Part shown: positions 26,907-42,210 of the stretch, one piece after another
Layout of the letters: the number at the start of each line of letters is the position of its first letter
Numbering within the stretch: position 1 is the stretch's first letter
Assembly (NCBI GenBank): GCA_963665005.2
Contig: CAXXTQ010000002.1
Location: forward strand, 12,964-76,963
Direction: 5' to 3'
Origin: Christensenellaceae bacterium
GTDB taxonomy: Bacteria; Bacillota; Clostridia; Christensenellales; SZUA-584
Length of the DNA: 64,000 nt
Position numbers and translations under genes: made by a program
Notes under the pieces: generated by a model
Databases searched by the model: none
Seen by the model: the letters and a program-made list of their open reading frames with translations, nothing else
Told to the model about the DNA's origin: nothing

Positions 26907-26937
26907 AAAAGCCGCAGCAAAAATGCTGCGGCTTTTT
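26907..26937. terminator. Bidirectional rho-independent terminator (nadC on plus; ancestral tRNA-Gln flank on minus)
   Basis: Stem gccgcagca/tgctgcggc with an AAAA loop, flanked by an A-run upstream and a T-run downstream. Confidence 0.75.
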
Positions 26938-26941
26938 CCTT

Positions 26942-26964
26942 TGGCAGCGGAACTAGGATTCGAA
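26942..26964 (-). repeat. Direct repeat 1: copy of the 3-prime 23 nt of tRNA-Gln (att-like)
   Basis: tggcagcggaactaggattcgaa is identical to 41861-41883 and to 42137-42159 (T-loop to CCA end of tRNA-Gln), in the same orientation. Confidence 0.85.
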
Positions 26965-32195: not shown

Positions 32196-33152
32196 CTATT
32201 TTTCTTTAGCCATACGTAATTTCTGTAAACAATCAAAGCTTACCGCCAACAACAAAACAACACCCTGTACAACAATTTGCACATACTCGCTTACATTTGC
32301 CAGAGCCATACCATTTGCAAGCACGCCCATTATAAACACACCAATCAAGCAACCAAACACTGAGGCCGATCCACCTGAAATACTTGTTCCTCCCAGAACA
32401 CATGCTATAATAACATCGAACTCAAACCCTCCTCCTGTATTCGGCGATCCTGTGTTGATCCTTGAAAGGGTCACTATACCTGCTATACATGCAAATACAC
32501 TGCTCAACACATATACGCTCGTCTTCATGACGTCAACATTTATACCAGAAAGTTTTGCAGCTTCCTCGTTTCCTCCTATGGCAACATAATATCTGCCATA
32601 AGTCGTTTTATAAAGCAATAACCATGCCAATACAAAAGTAATCGCAAAGATAATTACAGGTATCGGGATATATGCCAAGTACCCTTGTCCAATTACTTTA
32701 AATTCTGTAGTAAAACCATATATGGGTAACCCGCCGCATATAAGGTAGGCTGCACCTTGAAGTATTTTCATAAAAGCAAGCGTCGCAATAAAGGGCGGTA
32801 TCTTTACCTTCGTAATAAACAAGCCAGTAATCAAGCCCGCTATAATGGCCATGACAATGCATATTAGTATTGCCAGGTACATATTCATACCCATATTAAC
32901 CATCATGTAGGCGCATATGATATTTGTAAATGTAACTTGTGAGCCTACTGATAAATCTATACCTCCCACTAACAATACAAACATCATACCTGCAGCGGCA
33001 ATCCCGACCATTGATACTTGTCTTGCAATATTTAACGTATTGTTAATTGAAAAGAAATTATTTGCAGTAAATGAAAAGAATATAACAAGAGCAATTAACA
33101 CAAATACGATTGCATACTTCCCTAAGAATTTCGCCTTTCCTTCTTTATACAT
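32196..33152 (-). CDS. CUT2 sugar ABC permease (RbsC-like)
   Basis: 318 aa, about 9-10 TM, typical RbsC/branched-chain permease pattern (GGIDLSVGS). Confidence 0.9.
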   Translation of the reverse strand: MYKEGKAKFLGKYAIVFVLIALVIFFSFTANNFFSINNTLNIARQVSMVGIAAAGMMFVLLVGGIDLSVGSQVTFTNIICAYMMVNMGMNMYLAILICIVMAIIAGLITGLFITKVKIPPFIATLAFMKILQGAAYLICGGLPIYGFTTEFKVIGQGYLAYIPIPVIIFAITFVLAWLLLYKTTYGRYYVAIGGNEEAAKLSGINVDVMKTSVYVLSSVFACIAGIVTLSRINTGSPNTGGGFEFDVIIACVLGGTSISGGSASVFGCLIGVFIMGVLANGMALANVSEYVQIVVQGVVLLLAVSFDCLQKLRMAKEK

Positions 33153-33171
33153 TATATACCATTTCCTCCAT

Positions 33172-34665
33172 TCAACTTACCTTTGATGCATAGTGCATTA
33201 TTTTTTCTTGAGAAAACTCTTCTCTTTTTAACTGGGCTCGTATTTTCCGTTCGCACAAAACAAGTATTCGATCAGACATTCCCATTAACTCAGGCATCTC
33301 CGACGAAATCATAATTATTGTTTTACCCTGTTTAACCATCTCATTTATGAGTATGTATATTTCATATTTTGCCCCAACGTCTATACCTCTGGTCGGCTCA
33401 TCCATTATAATTAGATCGGGCTGTGCCGCAAGCCATTTTGCAACAACAACCTTTTGCTGGTTGCCCCCGCTCAGATTTTTCACAAGCTGTTGTATAGACG
33501 GTGCTTTTATTGTAAGTGCATTTTTATATTTATCAATAATTTTTCTTTCTTTACTTCTATTGATCCAGGACAAAAAGGATATCTTACTTAACATAGCAAG
33601 CGTAATATTCTGGGCAATTGACATATGTGCTAATATACCATGCTCTTTACGGTTTTCCGGCACCAACACGATTCCGTGAGCAATCGCATCTTTGGGAGAT
33701 TTAACATGTATTTCCTTCCCCTTCAATTTCAACTTTCCAGATTTTATCTTTGCAGTGCCGAATATTAATTGCGCCATCTCCGTACGCCCAGCACCTACAA
33801 GGCCGCCCAAGCCCAGTATTTCTCCTCGATATAGCTTCATATTTAAGTTTTCAAATCCATTACCTGATACCCCTTCCATTTCCAGCAGTACTTCATCGGT
33901 AATCTGGGGCTCCTCTTTAGGAAATATGTTTTTTATTTCACGTCCTACCATCATTGTAATAAGCGTATCTCTTGTTATCTCGTTTGTATCCATAGTCGTA
34001 ATTAGCTTACCATCCCTCATAACAGAAACTCTGTCAGATACCTCAAATATTTCTTCTAATCGATGTGAGATATATATAATACTGACTCCGGAGGCTTTCA
34101 ATGTTCTTATCAATTTGAATAACGTCTCCACTTCTGCATCTGTCAATGGTGCAGTGGGCTCATCCATTATCAACACTTTTATATCCGTTATTAATACTTT
34201 ACCGATTTCAACTAGCTGTTGATATCCAACGGAAAGATTTTTTATTTGATCGTTTATATCTATCTTTATATCTAACTGATCAAACACCTGCAGGGCACGC
34301 TTTTTCATTTCTTTTTTCTTTAAAAATTTCCCAACCTTTATCTCTCGTCCCAAGAACAGATTTTCCCACACGGTGAGTTCATTTACCAGATTAAATTCCT
34401 GATAGATAACACCAATACCTAATTCTTTCGAGCTATGTGGGTTAAAACCTTTATATTCTTCGCCTTCAATTACTATCGTACCGGAGCTGGGTTTATGTGC
34501 GCCTGCTGCAGTTTTTATCAATGTTGATTTGCCTGCGCCATTCTCACCAACAAGCGCATGCACCTCACCCTTACGAAGTGAAAAGCTCACATCATCTATT
34601 GCCAAAACACCCGGAAACGTTTTAGTAATATTACGAAATTCAAAAAAAGTCTTTTTATTTCCCAC
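33172..34665 (-). CDS. CUT2 sugar ABC ATP-binding protein (RbsA/MglA-like, tandem NBD, intact motifs)
   Basis: GENGAGKST, LSVGYQQ, LIMDEPT, GLVGAGRTE, LSGGNQQK and IIMDEPTRGID. GTG start with GAGGAA RBS. Confidence 0.9.
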   Translation of the reverse strand: MGNKKTFFEFRNITKTFPGVLAIDDVSFSLRKGEVHALVGENGAGKSTLIKTAAGAHKPSSGTIVIEGEEYKGFNPHSSKELGIGVIYQEFNLVNELTVWENLFLGREIKVGKFLKKKEMKKRALQVFDQLDIKIDINDQIKNLSVGYQQLVEIGKVLITDIKVLIMDEPTAPLTDAEVETLFKLIRTLKASGVSIIYISHRLEEIFEVSDRVSVMRDGKLITTMDTNEITRDTLITMMVGREIKNIFPKEEPQITDEVLLEMEGVSGNGFENLNMKLYRGEILGLGGLVGAGRTEMAQLIFGTAKIKSGKLKLKGKEIHVKSPKDAIAHGIVLVPENRKEHGILAHMSIAQNITLAMLSKISFLSWINRSKERKIIDKYKNALTIKAPSIQQLVKNLSGGNQQKVVVAKWLAAQPDLIIMDEPTRGIDVGAKYEIYILINEMVKQGKTIIMISSEMPELMGMSDRILVLCERKIRAQLKREEFSQEKIMHYASKVS

Positions 34666-34750
34666 TTAATTTCCTCTTTCGTTTTTTTTATAATTCTACA
34701 GACACGAACAGCAAATATATTACCGTTCGTGTCTGCACCTATTTATACCT

Positions 34751-35866
34751 TTATTCTAAATAATCTCCAAAATACGCCAGGGCTTCGTAATCAACCGTTA
34801 CTTCAATATCATAATTGAGCTGTTCCATCATTTCAGGTAAGTTATCATAAGTAATTGGAAGTACAGGCATATACAAAACACTTTCATAATCTTCGCCGCG
34901 TACAACCTTCATTGTTTCATCTATCATAGCTTCCGCGTGAAGAGCTCCCCCTCCAAGATTTGCACAGCCACGTATATAACCGCCCATGGCCATTAACGTA
35001 ACCGCTTCCAAGCTACCGTCGATTGTGAAAATACCAAAGTCATCATCAGCATTGGCCGCTACAATCGCCTCGTTTGCGCCAACACCGCCGCCATCACCAA
35101 AAGATAGAATGATGTCCATATCGGGGTAAGCCTGGAGCATGTTTTCAGCTCCATCAAATCCTTCAGTTGCTACCAAAGCGTCTTGCTCTATAACGACCTC
35201 CGCGTTAGGAGCCAGTTCTGCAAGAGCATCTTTCATTCCTTGAACACGCGTTGCGGCTATATCAGGAAATACGCTACTCCCGAATACTCCAACTTCAATT
35301 GTTTCCTTATTTTTTAGTGTTTCATGCTCATTGATCCATGCCGCTGCCATAGTACCACACATCACACCCGCATCATGATCAGGCATAGCATATTTAATAT
35401 CATCGACTAGAGATTCGGTCGTATAAGCACAAAGCGCAATGCCGTTGTCCTTTGCCTTCTGAAGCACGTCTTCACCTGCAGTTGTTGGCGTAATGTATAT
35501 AATGCCGTCATAACCAGCCGTAATGAAATTTTCCATTTGCTCAACAAATTTGCTGGGATCATCATCATAAGAAACGGATGTTACGTTGGCATTATACTTT
35601 TCCTTTGCATATACTTCTGCATGATTAACAAGATCAACCCAAACACTGTTAGTAAGGCCGCTGAATACGATGCCGAGCTGGTACTCCTTAGCAGTCTCGT
35701 CAACGCTATCATCAGGCTCTTCGCCACCATTTTCCGCAGTCTCTGTATCTACCGCTTCATCGGTAGACTGAACTTCGTTAGGTGCACCTGTACAAGCAGC
35801 AAATACAAACGCTAATAATAAAACTAACAGTACAAACGCTATGCTCCTTTTCATCTTCTTCACCAT
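34751..35866 (-). CDS. Sugar ABC substrate-binding lipoprotein (PBP1-like)
   Basis: Signal peptide plus lipobox (VFAAC), an acidic linker, then a binding-protein fold sequence. AGGAGG RBS. Confidence 0.85.
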   Translation of the reverse strand: MVKKMKRSIAFVLLVLLLAFVFAACTGAPNEVQSTDEAVDTETAENGGEEPDDSVDETAKEYQLGIVFSGLTNSVWVDLVNHAEVYAKEKYNANVTSVSYDDDPSKFVEQMENFITAGYDGIIYITPTTAGEDVLQKAKDNGIALCAYTTESLVDDIKYAMPDHDAGVMCGTMAAAWINEHETLKNKETIEVGVFGSSVFPDIAATRVQGMKDALAELAPNAEVVIEQDALVATEGFDGAENMLQAYPDMDIILSFGDGGGVGANEAIVAANADDDFGIFTIDGSLEAVTLMAMGGYIRGCANLGGGALHAEAMIDETMKVVRGEDYESVLYMPVLPITYDNLPEMMEQLNYDIEVTVDYEALAYFGDYLE

Positions 35867-36111: not shown

Positions 36112-37725
36112 ATGATTACATCAAAGAAATTGTCAACAATAATCATAGATGACGAACCTAATGTCTGTGACTTAATAAAGCATTTAGGGAATTGGCAGGA
36201 GTTAAATATCGAAGTCATCGGAGAAGCAAATGGTGGTCAACAGGGTCTTGCCTTAATTCGAAAATACAAACCAGATATCGTAATAATTGATATGAGGCTT
36301 CCGGGGATTAGCGGAATTGATATTATTAAAAAATGTTTTACAGAACATATTTCGTCAAAATTTCTAGTTGTTAGTGGCTATAAAAAATTCGAATATGCTC
36401 AACAGGCTCTCACATTAAACGTTTCAGGGTATCTCCTCAAACCTATTAACAAATATGACCTTAATTCTGCCCTTAAAAAAATAATTACAGAGATTCAAAA
36501 TTCTTATGTTGCCAAGAATCATTTGCAAACTCTCTCCTCAACAATCGATATAAAACAAGGATATTTATGGGAGCAGCTATTTTTTGCATTGACCGAACAA
36601 AAAAGGAATAACATTGATATAAATAAACTTAGAAAAACTCTTGGAATTTCCAACGATAATATAAGCTTTGTATTTTTTATCGTTAAAATAGATGCTTTAA
36701 TTGATACATTAGATATAAATTCATTATTAAAACAGATTAATGCTTTATTAAAAAAATACTTTAATGAACAAGCTCCCTTTCCCTTACATATTTTCAAAAC
36801 CGAAAATCGCCTTTTTAGCATTTTATATTATGAATCGGCCAGTCCCTACAACGCCACGTCGATATTTAATAATATCTATCAACTAGTAAATAAAAAAATA
36901 CTTCCAGCCAAAGCAAAAGTAACTATAGGAATTAGTTCGAAAAAAAATAGTTTTTCTGATTTGCCGTCAGCATATCGCGAAGCCACAGCCTGCATAGAAT
37001 TTCGTCGTTATAGTACACAAAATATAATTTTGTATACCCCGGAAATCCCGTTGGTCCCAAAAGAATTTGCTGTTCCTCAAAAATATGAAGACAAAATCAT
37101 AAGAGCTATAGAAATCCAAAGTAAAGAAAAGGCTTTACAAATCTTTAATGATTTTTGGTCAGAATTTTTGCCCACTTTTAAGCCTCGCGGCAGTTTATTC
37201 ATTACAATTAGCGCATTTGTGGAAACATGGTGTTCAATACTTAATAGCTATTCTAAACATACGGATTTTTTTCAAAAAGAAAAATATATGCTTATTACAT
37301 CAATAGATAATGAAATGAACCTCAATAAAATTAAGGATTATGTTTCCATAATGATCAAATCTTCTATTAAACAATATGCTGACTGCCATAAATCATGGGG
37401 GGACCAATATATACGAACAGCTAAAAAATATATTGCAGAAAATTTGGGAAATGGTTTAACATTGGATGAAGTTGCTGAAGCAGTATCTTTAAATCCAATA
37501 TATTTTAGTTCATTATTTAAAACAAAAACCGAAATGAATTTCTCCAGTTATATCCAAAAGCAACGTATAGATATGGCTAAGCAACTACTTCAAAAATCTA
37601 AGTCTCCCATCAAAGTCATTAGTTCTTCCGTCGGTTATCAAGATATCAATTATTTTACAAAACTGTTTAAAAGGTATGTCGGAATTACTCCATCTGCATA
37701 TCGGCGTATGCATTTTCCAATTTAA
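36112..37725 (+). CDS. Response regulator, CheY receiver plus AraC/XylS HTH (YesN-like), RR2
   Basis: IIIDDEP, DIVIIDMRLP and LLKP. C-terminal AraC HTH (LNPIYFSSLFKTKTEMNF, GYQDINYFTKLFKRYVGITPSAYRR). Confidence 0.9.
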   Translation: MITSKKLSTIIIDDEPNVCDLIKHLGNWQELNIEVIGEANGGQQGLALIRKYKPDIVIIDMRLPGISGIDIIKKCFTEHISSKFLVVSGYKKFEYAQQALTLNVSGYLLKPINKYDLNSALKKIITEIQNSYVAKNHLQTLSSTIDIKQGYLWEQLFFALTEQKRNNIDINKLRKTLGISNDNISFVFFIVKIDALIDTLDINSLLKQINALLKKYFNEQAPFPLHIFKTENRLFSILYYESASPYNATSIFNNIYQLVNKKILPAKAKVTIGISSKKNSFSDLPSAYREATACIEFRRYSTQNIILYTPEIPLVPKEFAVPQKYEDKIIRAIEIQSKEKALQIFNDFWSEFLPTFKPRGSLFITISAFVETWCSILNSYSKHTDFFQKEKYMLITSIDNEMNLNKIKDYVSIMIKSSIKQYADCHKSWGDQYIRTAKKYIAENLGNGLTLDEVAEAVSLNPIYFSSLFKTKTEMNFSSYIQKQRIDMAKQLLQKSKSPIKVISSSVGYQDINYFTKLFKRYVGITPSAYRRMHFPI

Positions 37726-37732
37726 ATATGGT

Positions 37733-38776
37733 ATGAATATGAAATTATTAAAAAATAAAAATAATAAAATAAATTTTTTTTCTCATGCTGCTTTTGTACT
37801 ATATTGCCTATTATTTTCTGCGCAGATTTTCTCGCTTTATTTTATTTATCTTGCATATAGAGTATCCTTATTAAGTATTTTGTATTTCTTTTTTATAATT
37901 CTTTGTATGCTATTTTTTATTTTCATTATAATTCGGCCAATATATAAGAACTACAAACGCGGCAAAATTGCTGGCATTGTTGAAAACAATCCTTTTAAAA
38001 TGCTAAATAGCCTTGCTTCAGGTGCGTGGGTGAAAATCATTGAAGAAAACAATAATTTAGTTAAAAAAGACTACTCTAATAAAATACTTCTTAACCAAAT
38101 GAAATTTCAAACATTGCAAAATCAAATAAATCCTCATTTTTTATATAATTCCCTTGATTCTGTCCGTGGACTGGCAATAAAGGCAAAGGACTATTCTACA
38201 GCAGAAATGGTAGAAGCTCTCGCCTCATTTTTCAGATATAACATTGGTAATGAAAATGATATCGTTGAATTGCATCAGGAAATACAAAGTATACGCAACT
38301 ATTTTATTATCCAGAGATATCGTTTCTCAAATCGTTTTAAACTTGAGTGCCATTTTGATCAGAAAGACTCCTCAATTATTCAATATATGATTCCAAAACT
38401 AATAATACAACCGTTAGTAGAAAACGCAATATTTCATGGACTCGAACCCAAAGAAGGCAAAGGTTTCGTCGCCATCAATGTCCGTAAAACTACACACAGA
38501 CTGTATATATCAGTTGCCGACAATGGCGTAGGGATGAGCGACGCAGAATTACACTATCTCAATAAAAAATTGCTTTCAATTAAAAAAACTTCGCAAGGCT
38601 TATCTATTAGCGAAGATATGAAACATAAAAACATTGCTATACCTAATATAAATCAACGCATAAAAAGTATTTTTGGAGAAGATTTTGGTTTGCATATCAG
38701 CAGTACGCTCAATCTTGGTACAGAAATCGAACTCTCTCTCCCATTTCCATCACAGATAAAGGATTACAGCCAGTGA
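37733..38776 (+). CDS. Short LytS/YesM-type histidine kinase without an extracytoplasmic domain, HK2
   Basis: Two adjacent TM helices, a short linker, H-box INPHFLYNSLDSVRG, N-box QPLVENAIFHG and G-box ADNGVGM. The start is ambiguous (ATG 37733 or 37739; the ORF-track start 37676 overlaps RR2). Confidence 0.85.
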   Translation: MNMKLLKNKNNKINFFSHAAFVLYCLLFSAQIFSLYFIYLAYRVSLLSILYFFFIILCMLFFIFIIIRPIYKNYKRGKIAGIVENNPFKMLNSLASGAWVKIIEENNNLVKKDYSNKILLNQMKFQTLQNQINPHFLYNSLDSVRGLAIKAKDYSTAEMVEALASFFRYNIGNENDIVELHQEIQSIRNYFIIQRYRFSNRFKLECHFDQKDSSIIQYMIPKLIIQPLVENAIFHGLEPKEGKGFVAINVRKTTHRLYISVADNGVGMSDAELHYLNKKLLSIKKTSQGLSISEDMKHKNIAIPNINQRIKSIFGEDFGLHISSTLNLGTEIELSLPFPSQIKDYSQ

Positions 38777-40182
38777 TAGACGAATTGCTTAGAATTGAAG
38801 ATTTATACGGCTATTATATTGAGAAAACAATACTTGATCATGTTGCTTTTAGTCTTTTTAATGGCGAAATTTTGTGCCTATTTGGATTGAATAATTCCGG
38901 GAAAAGTACTATTATCCGCATCTTTTCGGGCAAAATACACGGCGTCTGGGAAAAAAGAATATATTATAAAGGTAACCCTATAACAATTGATTCTCCAACC
39001 GAATCAAAAAAACTTGGAATTGCATGTATACAATCTAACTCTTCGCTACTGGATACTTTTACGGTATCAGAAAGCCTTTTTATAATGCCTGAAATTTCTC
39101 CAAAACGCACCTTTATCTCATATAAAAAAATTAATAAAAAGACTGCTCAAATCCTAAAAAAATTTGATCTCGATATAAACCCTACCGACATAGTATGCAA
39201 TCTTAGTCAAGCCAACCGCTTCCTTCTTGAAATTGTTAAAAATATAGTAGATGAAAAAGAAATATTCTTTATTGACTGTCTTCATGTATTCAGGCAAAAA
39301 ACTGATTTTGATAAACTTAGAAAAATTATTATTAGCCTTAGAGAAACTGGTAAAACCATTTTATTTACCAGTAATAATTACCACCAAAACCTTTCCTTTG
39401 CTGATCGTATTTATATATTACGTGATGGTATGATCGTAAAGGAAATGACTGCTTCAAATTTTACTCCAAAGCTCTTAAAGAAATATGCAGCTAAACAGTT
39501 TTATATTCCAACATCGAATAGCAAAGTAGAAAAAGATTCATCTATACTGCTAGACATTAAAAACCTCAATGTTAACAAAAAATCTCATGCGCTTTCTTTT
39601 AAAATCTTTAAAGGTGCAATAACTGCTGTTGCATCACAAAATAAAAATTTGCTGCATGAATTAGCTAACTATTTTATTGACCCATATCCACAGAATATTT
39701 TTGTGAAAATTAATGGTATGAACGTTACACACAAGAAATTCTGCAAATGGCTCAAACGCAATTCCAGCACTATATTAAACCTATCTAAAAGCGTTTGTAG
39801 ATTTTATAACATGAGTGTTTTAGAAAACATTACTGTAAGTGCTAAACCTTCTTTCCCATTCCCTAGATTATGGATTAATAAAAAAGTCAAAAGCTTTATA
39901 GCTACTGACAATAAACATCTTATTGATGTTGTAGAACTACTAGATAAACAAGGAGGTGACTTTGTCGTCTACAATGCATTTCTTCTTATAAAACGACTTA
40001 TATACCGTAAGATACAATTTGTCGTATTCTACTGCCCCGAATTTGGACTTGATCCCTTAAGTATTACTTGGATCTACTCAGTAATTGAAGAACTCTGTAA
40101 AAAAGGTATTGGTGTATTGCTACTTACTGAGAATGGTAATGAGGCGTCCCCTTTTTGTTCCCATACTATTTGGATAGGCTAA
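38773..40182 (+). CDS. Degenerate tandem-NBD ABC ATPase homologue (Walker A kept in NBD1, catalytic residues lost), called P2 here
   Basis: 469 aa. GTG start forms a GTGA overlap with the HK2 stop. NBD1 has Walker A GLNNSGKST intact, but the signature is LSQANRF, Walker B is IFFIDCLH (catalytic Glu is Cys) and the H-loop is TSNNY. NBD2 has no Walker A, and the Walker B region is FYCPEFGLD. Confidence 0.85.
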   Translation: MIDELLRIEDLYGYYIEKTILDHVAFSLFNGEILCLFGLNNSGKSTIIRIFSGKIHGVWEKRIYYKGNPITIDSPTESKKLGIACIQSNSSLLDTFTVSESLFIMPEISPKRTFISYKKINKKTAQILKKFDLDINPTDIVCNLSQANRFLLEIVKNIVDEKEIFFIDCLHVFRQKTDFDKLRKIIISLRETGKTILFTSNNYHQNLSFADRIYILRDGMIVKEMTASNFTPKLLKKYAAKQFYIPTSNSKVEKDSSILLDIKNLNVNKKSHALSFKIFKGAITAVASQNKNLLHELANYFIDPYPQNIFVKINGMNVTHKKFCKWLKRNSSTILNLSKSVCRFYNMSVLENITVSAKPSFPFPRLWINKKVKSFIATDNKHLIDVVELLDKQGGDFVVYNAFLLIKRLIYRKIQFVVFYCPEFGLDPLSITWIYSVIEELCKKGIGVLLLTENGNEASPFCSHTIWIG

Positions 40183-41835: not shown

Positions 41836-41860
41836 CATCGTGGTTTCCGGGGTTTTCTTG

Positions 41861-41883
41861 TGGCAGCGGAACTAGGATTCGAA
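41861..41883 (-). repeat. Direct repeat 2: copy of the 3-prime 23 nt of tRNA-Gln (att-like)
   Basis: Identical to 26942-26964 and 42137-42159. The preceding T-stem sequence is not conserved, so it is not a tRNA. Confidence 0.85.
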
Positions 41884-42104: not shown

Positions 42105-42132
42105 AAAAACGGAGCAAAGCGTACTTTGCTCC
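42105..42132 (-). terminator. Rho-independent terminator of the tRNA-Val/6S/tRNA-Gln operon
   Basis: 9-bp stem ggagcaaag/ctttgctcc with a 4-nt loop, then GTTTTT on the minus strand, 4 nt after the tRNA-Gln CCA end. Confidence 0.75.
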
Positions 42133-42136
42133 GACG

Positions 42137-42210
42137 TGGCAGCGGAACTAGGATTCGAACCTAGACACTACGAGTCAGAGTCGCAGGTGCTACCGTTACA
42201 CAATTCCGCT
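42137..42210 (-). tRNA. tRNA-Gln (anticodon CTG)
   Basis: Hand-folded cloverleaf: acceptor AGCGGAA/TTCCGCT, anticodon stem TGCGA/TCGTA, loop CTCTGAC, T-arm CTAGG-TTCGAAT-CCTAG, encoded CCA. Confidence 0.9.

Follow-up and report, generated by a model that had tools for sequence, protein, structure and literature searches.

The window analysed here, a stretch of 64,000 nucleotides (nt) from the genome of a Christensenellaceae bacterium (contig CAXXTQ010000002.1, positions 12,964 to 76,963), contains a module of three genes in which an AraC-type response regulator, RR2, is followed by HK2, a histidine kinase of the PF06580 (LytS/YesM) type, and by P2, a dead paralogue of the tandem ATPases of CUT2 (RbsA/XylG-type) ATP-binding cassette (ABC) sugar transporters. 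The RR2 stop codon lies 8 nt before the HK2 start, and the HK2 stop overlaps the GTG start of P2 (GTGA, 38773-38776). Divergent from the module is a CUT2 transporter operon (32196-35866), which from its position is the presumed regulatory target and signal source of RR2-HK2-P2. The coordinates of these features, and of a second module of the same layout in the genome, are collected in Table 1.

Table 1. Features of the RR2-HK2-P2 locus and of the second module in the same genome (C1 positions). aa, amino acids; AF2, AlphaFold2; DHp, dimerization and histidine phosphotransfer; HTH, helix-turn-helix; NBD, nucleotide-binding domain; ORF, open reading frame; TM, transmembrane.
Feature	Position	Strand	Evidence or remark
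RR2, response regulator with REC and AraC-type HTH (YesN type), first gene of module	36112..37725	+	Pfam Response_reg 10-121, HTH_18/HTH_AraC 455-532
HK2, sensor-less PF06580 (LytS/YesM-type) histidine kinase, 347 aa	37733..38776	+	ORF, Pfam, hydropathy, alignment, AF2
HK2 TM helix 1, residues ~18-41	37784..37855	+	Hydropathy; AF2 helix 10-42
HK2 extracytoplasmic turn YRVS, ~3-4 residues	37856..37867	+	Hydropathy; AF2 non-helical residues 43-45
HK2 TM helix 2, residues ~46-66	37868..37930	+	Kyte-Doolittle mean up to 3.3; AF2 helix 46-79
HK2 cytoplasmic linker, ~57 aa, helix-gap-helix	37931..38101	+	Alignment, HAMP scan, AF2
HK2 DHp / PF06580 H-box	38102..38338	+	Pfam, alignment; phospho-acceptor His135 (QINPHFLYN) at 38135-38137
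HK2 HATPase_c catalytic domain, N231 and D263xGxG267 intact	38399..38749	+	Pfam, alignment
P2, 469-aa catalytically dead tandem-NBD paralogue of CUT2 ABC ATPases	38773..40182	+	Pfam, NCBIfam, motifs, AF2
P2 NBD1 Walker A GLNNSGKST, intact	38884..38910	+	Motif table
Solute-binding protein (Peripla_BP_4) of divergent CUT2 transporter	34751..35866	-	Pfam
Canonical tandem-NBD CUT2 ATPase, all motifs intact	33172..34665	-	Two ABC_tran domains, E 1.8e-55; motif table
CUT2 permease (BPD_transp_2), candidate docking site for P2	32196..33152	-	Pfam; docking inferred
Second module, binding protein	C1:325377-326495		Divergent CUT2 operon, then permease
Second module, canonical ATPase	C1:327525-329027		Divergent CUT2 operon
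Second module, response regulator	C1:330158-331828		
Second module, short kinase, 342 aa	C1:331858-332886		53% identical to HK2
Second module, P	C1:332883-334289		Overlaps kinase; Walker A intact

HK2 has two adjoining hydrophobic segments (residues ~18-41 and ~43-66) with only 'YRVS' between them, and its K-rich N-terminus (four K/R in residues 1-17) and the six K/R that follow TM helix 2 in residues 67-90 fit an in-out-in topology. In the AlphaFold2 model (30 homologues; predicted local distance difference test score, pLDDT, 83.6) a helix at 10-42 and another at 46-79 are joined by a turn at 43-45, and helices 87-95 and 98-131 lead into the DHp domain and the catalytic and ATP-binding (CA) domain. 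The Pfam scan returned two domains only, His_kinase (PF06580; residues 124-202, E 5e-25) and HATPase_c (residues 223-339, E 6.6e-8), and no PAS, GAF or extracellular module; nor did the HAMP scan or the AF2 model reveal a hidden sensor. The linker has the length of a HAMP domain, starts with a conserved proline (IRPIY) and is modelled as helix-gap-helix, and it gives no match to Pfam HAMP even at E = 10, a short relative (P0108) scoring 25.3 bits. The catalytic residues H135, N231 and D263xG265xG267 are invariant across 30 aligned short homologues. With its H-box, the N and G boxes of HATPase_c and an adjacent regulator carrying REC and AraC-type HTH domains, HK2 has the marks of the LytS/YesM family, but it lacks the classic YesM layout of two TM helices around an extracellular domain of ~250-300 aa, which HK1 and 56 long relatives possess. 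HK1 (4242/4254-6017, 591 aa) has its TM helices at ~31-49 and ~283-301 and an outside loop of ~235-250 aa, and HK2 is 244 aa shorter. An earlier note on this DNA had described HK1 as a kinase of the usual YesM layout, and HK2 as about 240 aa shorter, with two back-to-back TM helices, a short linker running into the PF06580 H-box and no extracytoplasmic sensor domain. This description holds in each part, and the two strings quoted there for the helices fall within the hydrophobic segments.

HK2 was also considered as a 5'-truncated gene, and this was ruled out, since RR2 ends directly upstream and the N-terminus is common to the homologues. The public gene call for HK2 is 289 aa long (P0001, 83% of the query) and begins at Met59; it was rejected because this start lies inside TM helix 2 and because homologues back the 347-aa form with both helices, and the deposited annotation is probably truncated at its N-terminus. 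An in-frame ATG at 37676 would lengthen HK2 by 19 aa but overlaps RR2. Of the 120 top-scoring database homologues of HK2, about 110 are 300-370 aa long; most show the TM hairpin of HK2, their loops spanning at most ~17 aa, and a subgroup of ~300-312 aa has one N-terminal TM helix. The short form is thus a family and no artefact of truncation.

P2 shares the tandem-NBD fold and the length class of canonical CUT2 ATPases such as RbsA, XylG, MglA and AraG. Pfam recognises a single ABC_tran match in it, and its best NCBIfam matches are XylG, YtfR, AlsA and RbsA, the top score of 123 bits falling short of the equivalog cut-off of 699 (XylG PRK13549). The AF2 model (pLDDT 81.6) is a tandem-NBD fold for which Foldseek returned fused-NBD OppD/DppD and single NBDs. 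Unlike the canonical enzymes, however, P2 lacks the catalytic glutamate, the LSGGQ signature (here LSQAN), the H-loop histidine (TSNN), the Q-loop glutamine, all NBD2 motifs, this domain being fully degenerate, and the last ~25 aa. Its only catalytic remnants are the NBD1 Walker A and the Walker B aspartate (FFID-C). Without the glutamate, signature and H-loop P2 itself could not, to judge from these motifs, hydrolyse ATP. A direct repeat of 39 nt (77% identity, AT-rich) links 36604-36642 in RR2 with 39292-39330 in P2 and is probably a chance match.

P2 is one of a family of such proteins, here called P, that are encoded next to short kinases. None of them keeps the catalytic glutamate, the signature is shrunk to LSxxE/Q, all NBD2 motifs are lost, and the proteins end ~25 aa short of real ATPases at the C-terminus. 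The NBD1 Walker A is retained only in a minority subclade, comprising P2, its C1 paralogue and the P proteins of loci L003, L004, L019 and L026. Nucleotide binding is thus conceivable for P2; as a common function of the P family it is excluded, since most P proteins have lost the motif. In a tree of the ABC proteins, in which the root and the monophyly of P are unresolved, P proteins form long branches outside the tight clade of canonical CUT2 ATPases. Word-indexed searches, whether started from P2 or from the P alignment, yielded canonical ATPases almost exclusively and no close homologue of P2, and no fusion of kinase and P was seen in these searches, for which the P family is too divergent.

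Such divergence might suggest that P2 is a decaying ATPase pseudogene and HK2 a remnant (decayed or constitutive) of a long YesM kinase, with no specific signalling role for either, and the module does lie within an apparently horizontally acquired island and adjoins a broken insertion sequence (IS) element. We consider this extremely unlikely. Between close species pairs the ratio of nonsynonymous to synonymous substitution (dN/dS) is 0.11-0.18 for P and 0.07-0.10 for the kinase, and purifying selection of this strength identifies P as a working protein and not a decaying gene. The kinase catalytic residues are all invariant, intact ORFs of constant length are found in dozens of distant taxa, and the genome holds a second intact paralogous module.

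The earlier note proposed P2 as the obvious candidate for the partner of HK2 and suggested a survey of whether short sensor-less kinases co-occur with P-like genes. This survey was based on 80 genome loci found by conserved kinase-core patterns that recover short and long kinases alike, together with three exact look-ups (83 in all), in which each kinase and each tandem ABC ATPase within 8 kb was classified, an ATPase being scored as dead when it had neither a DEPT nor an LSxGxxQ motif. A dead tandem-NBD ATPase lies directly 3' of 27 of the 28 short PF06580 kinases, the 28th being cut by a contig end, and of none of the 56 long kinases (Fisher's exact p = 3.7e-21, not corrected for phylogeny). 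The linkage is thus all-or-none, and comparative genomics supports the proposed partnership. The P gene usually overlaps the kinase stop and is otherwise separated from it by a gap of a few nucleotides, a rule that fits stoichiometric co-production of the two proteins.

The same picture emerged when P was taken as the starting point. A profile built from 26 P proteins was run against 301 genomes of the same class, the best five candidates per genome being scored. This profile separates true P proteins only above ~420 bits; all nine matches above that value, one of them in this window, lie directly after a kinase of 334-368 aa, and all those scored below it are canonical ATPases followed by a permease. 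The prevalence of at least nine in 301 genomes is a lower bound, as weaker P proteins are hidden among canonical ATPases. Seven of seven look-ups of single homologues, including the class of short kinases with one TM helix described below, Bacillus and the most divergent members, gave the trio of regulator, kinase and P. Five PF06580 kinases are encoded in the genome from which the window comes; both short ones carry an overlapping P and the three long ones have none there. The second of the short ones belongs to the paralogous module of the same layout at C1:325377-334289.

A tree of the kinase cores places 37 short kinases in one group without a single long kinase inside it, although the support of that node is weak (0.23). 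The group is nested among long kinases, and HK1 falls in its sister group. The P and kinase trees are broadly congruent. Since the short kinases form a single clade, their association with P can be seen as one ancient and faithfully kept operon, now found in Clostridia, Bacilli and some genomes of the Treponema/Sphaerochaeta type, and the sensor-less form together with P is, on these trees, best read as one old invention that came about through loss of the ectodomain. Among the relatives of HK2 is a subclass of ~277-312 aa with a single N-terminal TM helix instead of the hairpin. In members of this subclass (L114/L115, represented by P0104 of 312 aa, and L011) P lies directly downstream and is followed by genes for a binding protein, an ATPase and a permease. 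The residues R145, A157, E161, N186 (Ser in HK2), T253 and A302 are present in at least 84% of short and at most 20% of long kinases. R145 occurs in 100% of short versus 19% of long kinases and E161 in 97% versus 17%, and at the position of A302 long kinases have Gly in 96%. The clade-specific positions span ~38165-38640 of the window, including the DHp region (R145, E161), and from the alignment they may form a surface that binds P or serve clade-specific pairing with the regulator.

Where a long kinase lies beside a CUT2 transporter, the gene that follows it encodes a Peripla_BP_4 binding protein in 21 of 25 loci (22 when a Pfam rescue of L063 is counted), often additional to the transporter's own binding protein. 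In L027, L035, L042, L047, L054, L078, L081 and others the Peripla_BP_4 gene starts within the 3' end of the kinase gene or directly behind it, and another binding-protein gene stands before the ATPase. A layout like that of XylFII thus appears to be very common for long kinases beside CUT2 transporters. In all short-kinase loci the same slot holds P. Judged from gene order, these look like two alternative three-component designs within one kinase family. In the first, a kinase with an ectodomain is paired with a duplicated binding protein outside the membrane; in the second, a kinase without an ectodomain is paired with a duplicated and inactivated ATPase inside it. In both designs the side of the membrane on which the accessory lies agrees with whether the kinase has an outside domain.

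We lean towards a reading in which RR2, HK2 and P2 constitute a three-component sugar-sensing module, with P2 feeding HK2, plausibly by way of the CUT2 permease. HK2 would be an active YesM-type kinase cut down to a TM hairpin anchor, a helical linker of HAMP length and the DHp/CA core, and would be blind to the outside. P2 would be its obligatory co-translated partner, a paralogue of the transporter's tandem-NBD ATPase that no longer hydrolyses ATP. To supply the input P2 would still dock on the neighbouring CUT2 permease, replacing or competing with the real ATPase, and would pass the state of the transporter (binding protein loaded, or translocating) to HK2 held adjacent in the membrane. 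HK2 would then phosphorylate RR2, and this AraC-type regulator would switch on the divergent transporter and the catabolic operon. A relay of transporter state of this kind would be analogous to that of BceS with BceAB.

The two parts of this reading do not stand equally. It is likely, from the genomic evidence, that HK2 obtains its input through P2 or through contact between the two. This is supported by the lack of an input domain in a kinase whose catalytic core is intact, by the strict linkage of P to short kinases, the gene overlap, the single clade and the purifying selection on P, and by the fact that P fills the slot of an XylFII-like sensor binding protein, both accessories being duplicated transporter parts. 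Docking of P2 on the CUT2 permease is possible though somewhat doubtful. The stretches of P that are best conserved relative to canonical ATPases lie after both Q-loops (LTVADNIFVLR, MSYxDNL). In ABC transporters the NBD segment after the Q-loop meets the coupling helix of the permease, and the conserved segments give a weak hint of permease docking. A canonical CUT2 ATPase and permease are present within 8 kb of 22 of the 28 short-kinase modules.

Several observations weigh against the proposed scheme. The Q-loop glutamine is gone in nearly all P proteins. With only one permease gene available, P would need to sit on the same permease as the real ATPase. In at least three modules (L002, L012, L018) a CUT2 transporter is missing from the surrounding 6-8 kb. 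The poorly conserved sequence of the TM hairpin and the existence of the one-TM subclass (~310 aa) mean that a specific intramembrane contact is not supported, and a single ancestral operon behind the association means that the statistics overstate its independence. Furthermore, a dead ATPase can accompany a kinase with a full outside domain, as is seen with HK1. Divergent from RR1 and HK1 is a CUT2 operon that runs beyond the start of the window (genome C2:10187-15339) and is headed by another dead ATPase, P1 (967-2376, minus strand), followed by a binding protein of the lipoprotein type (342 aa, lipobox LYTGCS), an intact ATPase (C2:11204-12709) and a permease. Dead ATPases are therefore not confined to sensor-less kinases. 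In P1 the NBD1 Walker A is lost as well, and the ABC tree puts this protein next to the canonical ATPase clade; on this basis it seems that a dead ATPase arose separately here. The module of L002 is followed by a restriction-modification system instead of a transporter.

The main rival to docking is a purely cytoplasmic complex, in which P2 would bind the linker, DHp or CA domain of HK2 as a soluble sensor or allosteric subunit (responding, for example, to ATP/ADP or a sugar phosphate) without any contact with the transporter, the hairpin serving as an anchor only. In P2 and the subclade nearest to it the NBD1 Walker A has stayed intact across ~27% identity, and the clade-specific R145 and E161 lie in the DHp region, which could offer a P-binding face. 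Also in its favour, and against docking, are the unconserved TM region, the subclass with one TM helix, the loss of the Q-loop glutamine, the absence of a dedicated permease gene and the three modules that lack a neighbouring transporter. However, the loss of Walker A from most P proteins means that nucleotide binding is not a general function of the family, and no sugar-binding site is known from NBDs. Membrane anchoring of the kinase is kept family-wide and CUT2 transporters adjoin most of the modules, and overall we regard a P2 that works in the cytoplasm alone as rather unlikely.

Several known systems help to place the reading in which P2 feeds HK2. In the D-xylose sensor XylFII-LytS-YesN of Clostridium beijerinckii, an accessory binding protein binds the periplasmic domain of the kinase and reports xylose (PMC8050422). 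With this system and similar ones, for example CuaD (PMC8050422, PMC10384115), the HK2 module has in common the PF06580 kinase family and the REC-AraC regulator. The type of target, an adjacent CUT2 sugar ABC transporter, is also shared, for HK2 as deduced from position only, and in both cases the gene directly behind the kinase encodes an accessory protein that is a transporter-subunit paralogue. In XylFII-LytS-YesN the accessory is an extracellular binding protein on the periplasmic four-helix-bundle domain of the kinase, whereas HK2 has no outside domain and its accessory is a cytoplasmic dead ATPase, so that its signal must come from inside or through the transporter.

The earlier note also likened HK2 to the intramembrane-sensing kinases of the BceS/LiaS type. 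As far as architecture is concerned the likeness stands: the kinases of Bce-type modules (BceRS-BceAB; GraSR-VraFG; PMC10314905, PMC4513084, PMC11009047) resemble HK2 in their length of ~340 aa, in the TM hairpin with its minimal loop and in the lack of an input domain, and they depend on ABC-transporter components for input, as is proposed here for HK2. Among structural matches to the HK2 model, BceS (8g3a_D) ranks third overall and first over the full length, and the closest solved structure for the kinase domain is GanS (6swk, 34% identity). The likeness does not extend to family. Bce and Lia kinases have a HisKA or HisKA_3 DHp and an OmpR- or NarL-type regulator, in contrast to the PF06580 DHp and REC-AraC regulator of the HK2 module. 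The Bce partner is a complete ATP-hydrolysing exporter, BceAB, with a large extracellular domain and flux sensing of antimicrobial peptides (LiaF in the Lia type), whereas the neighbours of HK2 are a soluble, hydrolysis-dead tandem NBD and a CUT2 sugar importer with a BPD_transp_2 permease. HK2 is thus like the intramembrane-sensing kinases yet outside the Bce and Lia families.

This architecture, together with the HAMP-length linker after TM helix 2, could be taken to mean that the TM helices of HK2 receive a signal directly from the permease or the membrane, P2 being a transporter accessory whose linkage to the kinase reflects shared regulation only. We think this very unlikely, since P is tied more tightly to the kinase than to the transporter, overlapping the kinase in nearly all loci and persisting where no transporter is nearby. 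The hairpin is unconserved and reduced to a single helix in one subclass, and in the surveyed loci P is never found beside CUT2 transporters governed by long kinases.

A further comparison can be made with PhoR, which has two TM helices and essentially no periplasmic domain and takes its cue from the cytoplasmic (ATPase) face of the ABC importer PstSCAB. PhoR uses a PAS domain and the adaptor PhoU, and PstB is an active transporter ATPase; HK2, in contrast, has no PAS domain and has a dedicated dead ATPase paralogue. No match to a PhoU-type family was found among the nine neighbouring proteins scanned.

Transporter-dependent, sensor-less kinases are thus a known kind, to which HK2 and P2 add a variant. 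Our search of the literature outside subscription journals returned no report of a kinase that has a dead ABC ATPase as its partner, the only related returns being papers on XylFII-LytS and CbrA, and a sensor-less kinase combined with a dead sugar-transporter ATPase is apparently an undescribed way in which a two-component switch is wired to a sugar ABC transporter. Regulators of the YesM/YesN type rank among the most abundant controls of carbohydrate utilisation in Bacillota of gut, rumen and soil, and the input is known for a minority of them. The strict rule observed here, that where there is no outside domain a dead ATPase is encoded next door, gives a testable input hypothesis for a whole clade of these kinases. 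It also implies that the P genes, now annotated as "sugar ABC transporter ATP-binding protein", do not encode the motor of a transporter. One kinase family performing one task with either an extracellular or a cytoplasmic accessory amounts to a natural experiment, and the HK2-P2 pair would bring sugar importers under the idea of the transporter as co-sensor (Bce modules, PhoR/Pst), the coupling being done by a pseudo-enzyme dedicated to it.

As a more tentative generalisation, P proteins may be dedicated signal-input subunits, dead copies of the CUT2 ATPase that sit on the permease and turn some transporters into receptor complexes. If this is true, duplication of transporter parts gave rise, in Bacillota and some Spirochaetota, to two three-component sugar sensors that are interchangeable. 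One would read the outside, by means of a binding-protein paralogue and a kinase with an ectodomain, and the other would read the cytoplasmic face of the transporter, by means of an ATPase paralogue and a kinase without one.

Promoter and terminator scans gave results no better than those for shuffled sequence. Around the module, direct copies of a tRNA-Gln 3' end at 26929-26964, 41848-41883 and 42124-42159 bracket ~15 kb, the real tRNA-Gln gene being at 42137-42210 on the minus strand. This span holds the catabolic operon with its enzymes, the transporter, RR2-HK2-P2 and the broken IS element, and is consistent with an integrated island that has no integrase. The tRNA-Gln repeats that bound the island suggest that RR2-HK2-P2, the transporter and the enzymes form a self-contained cassette.

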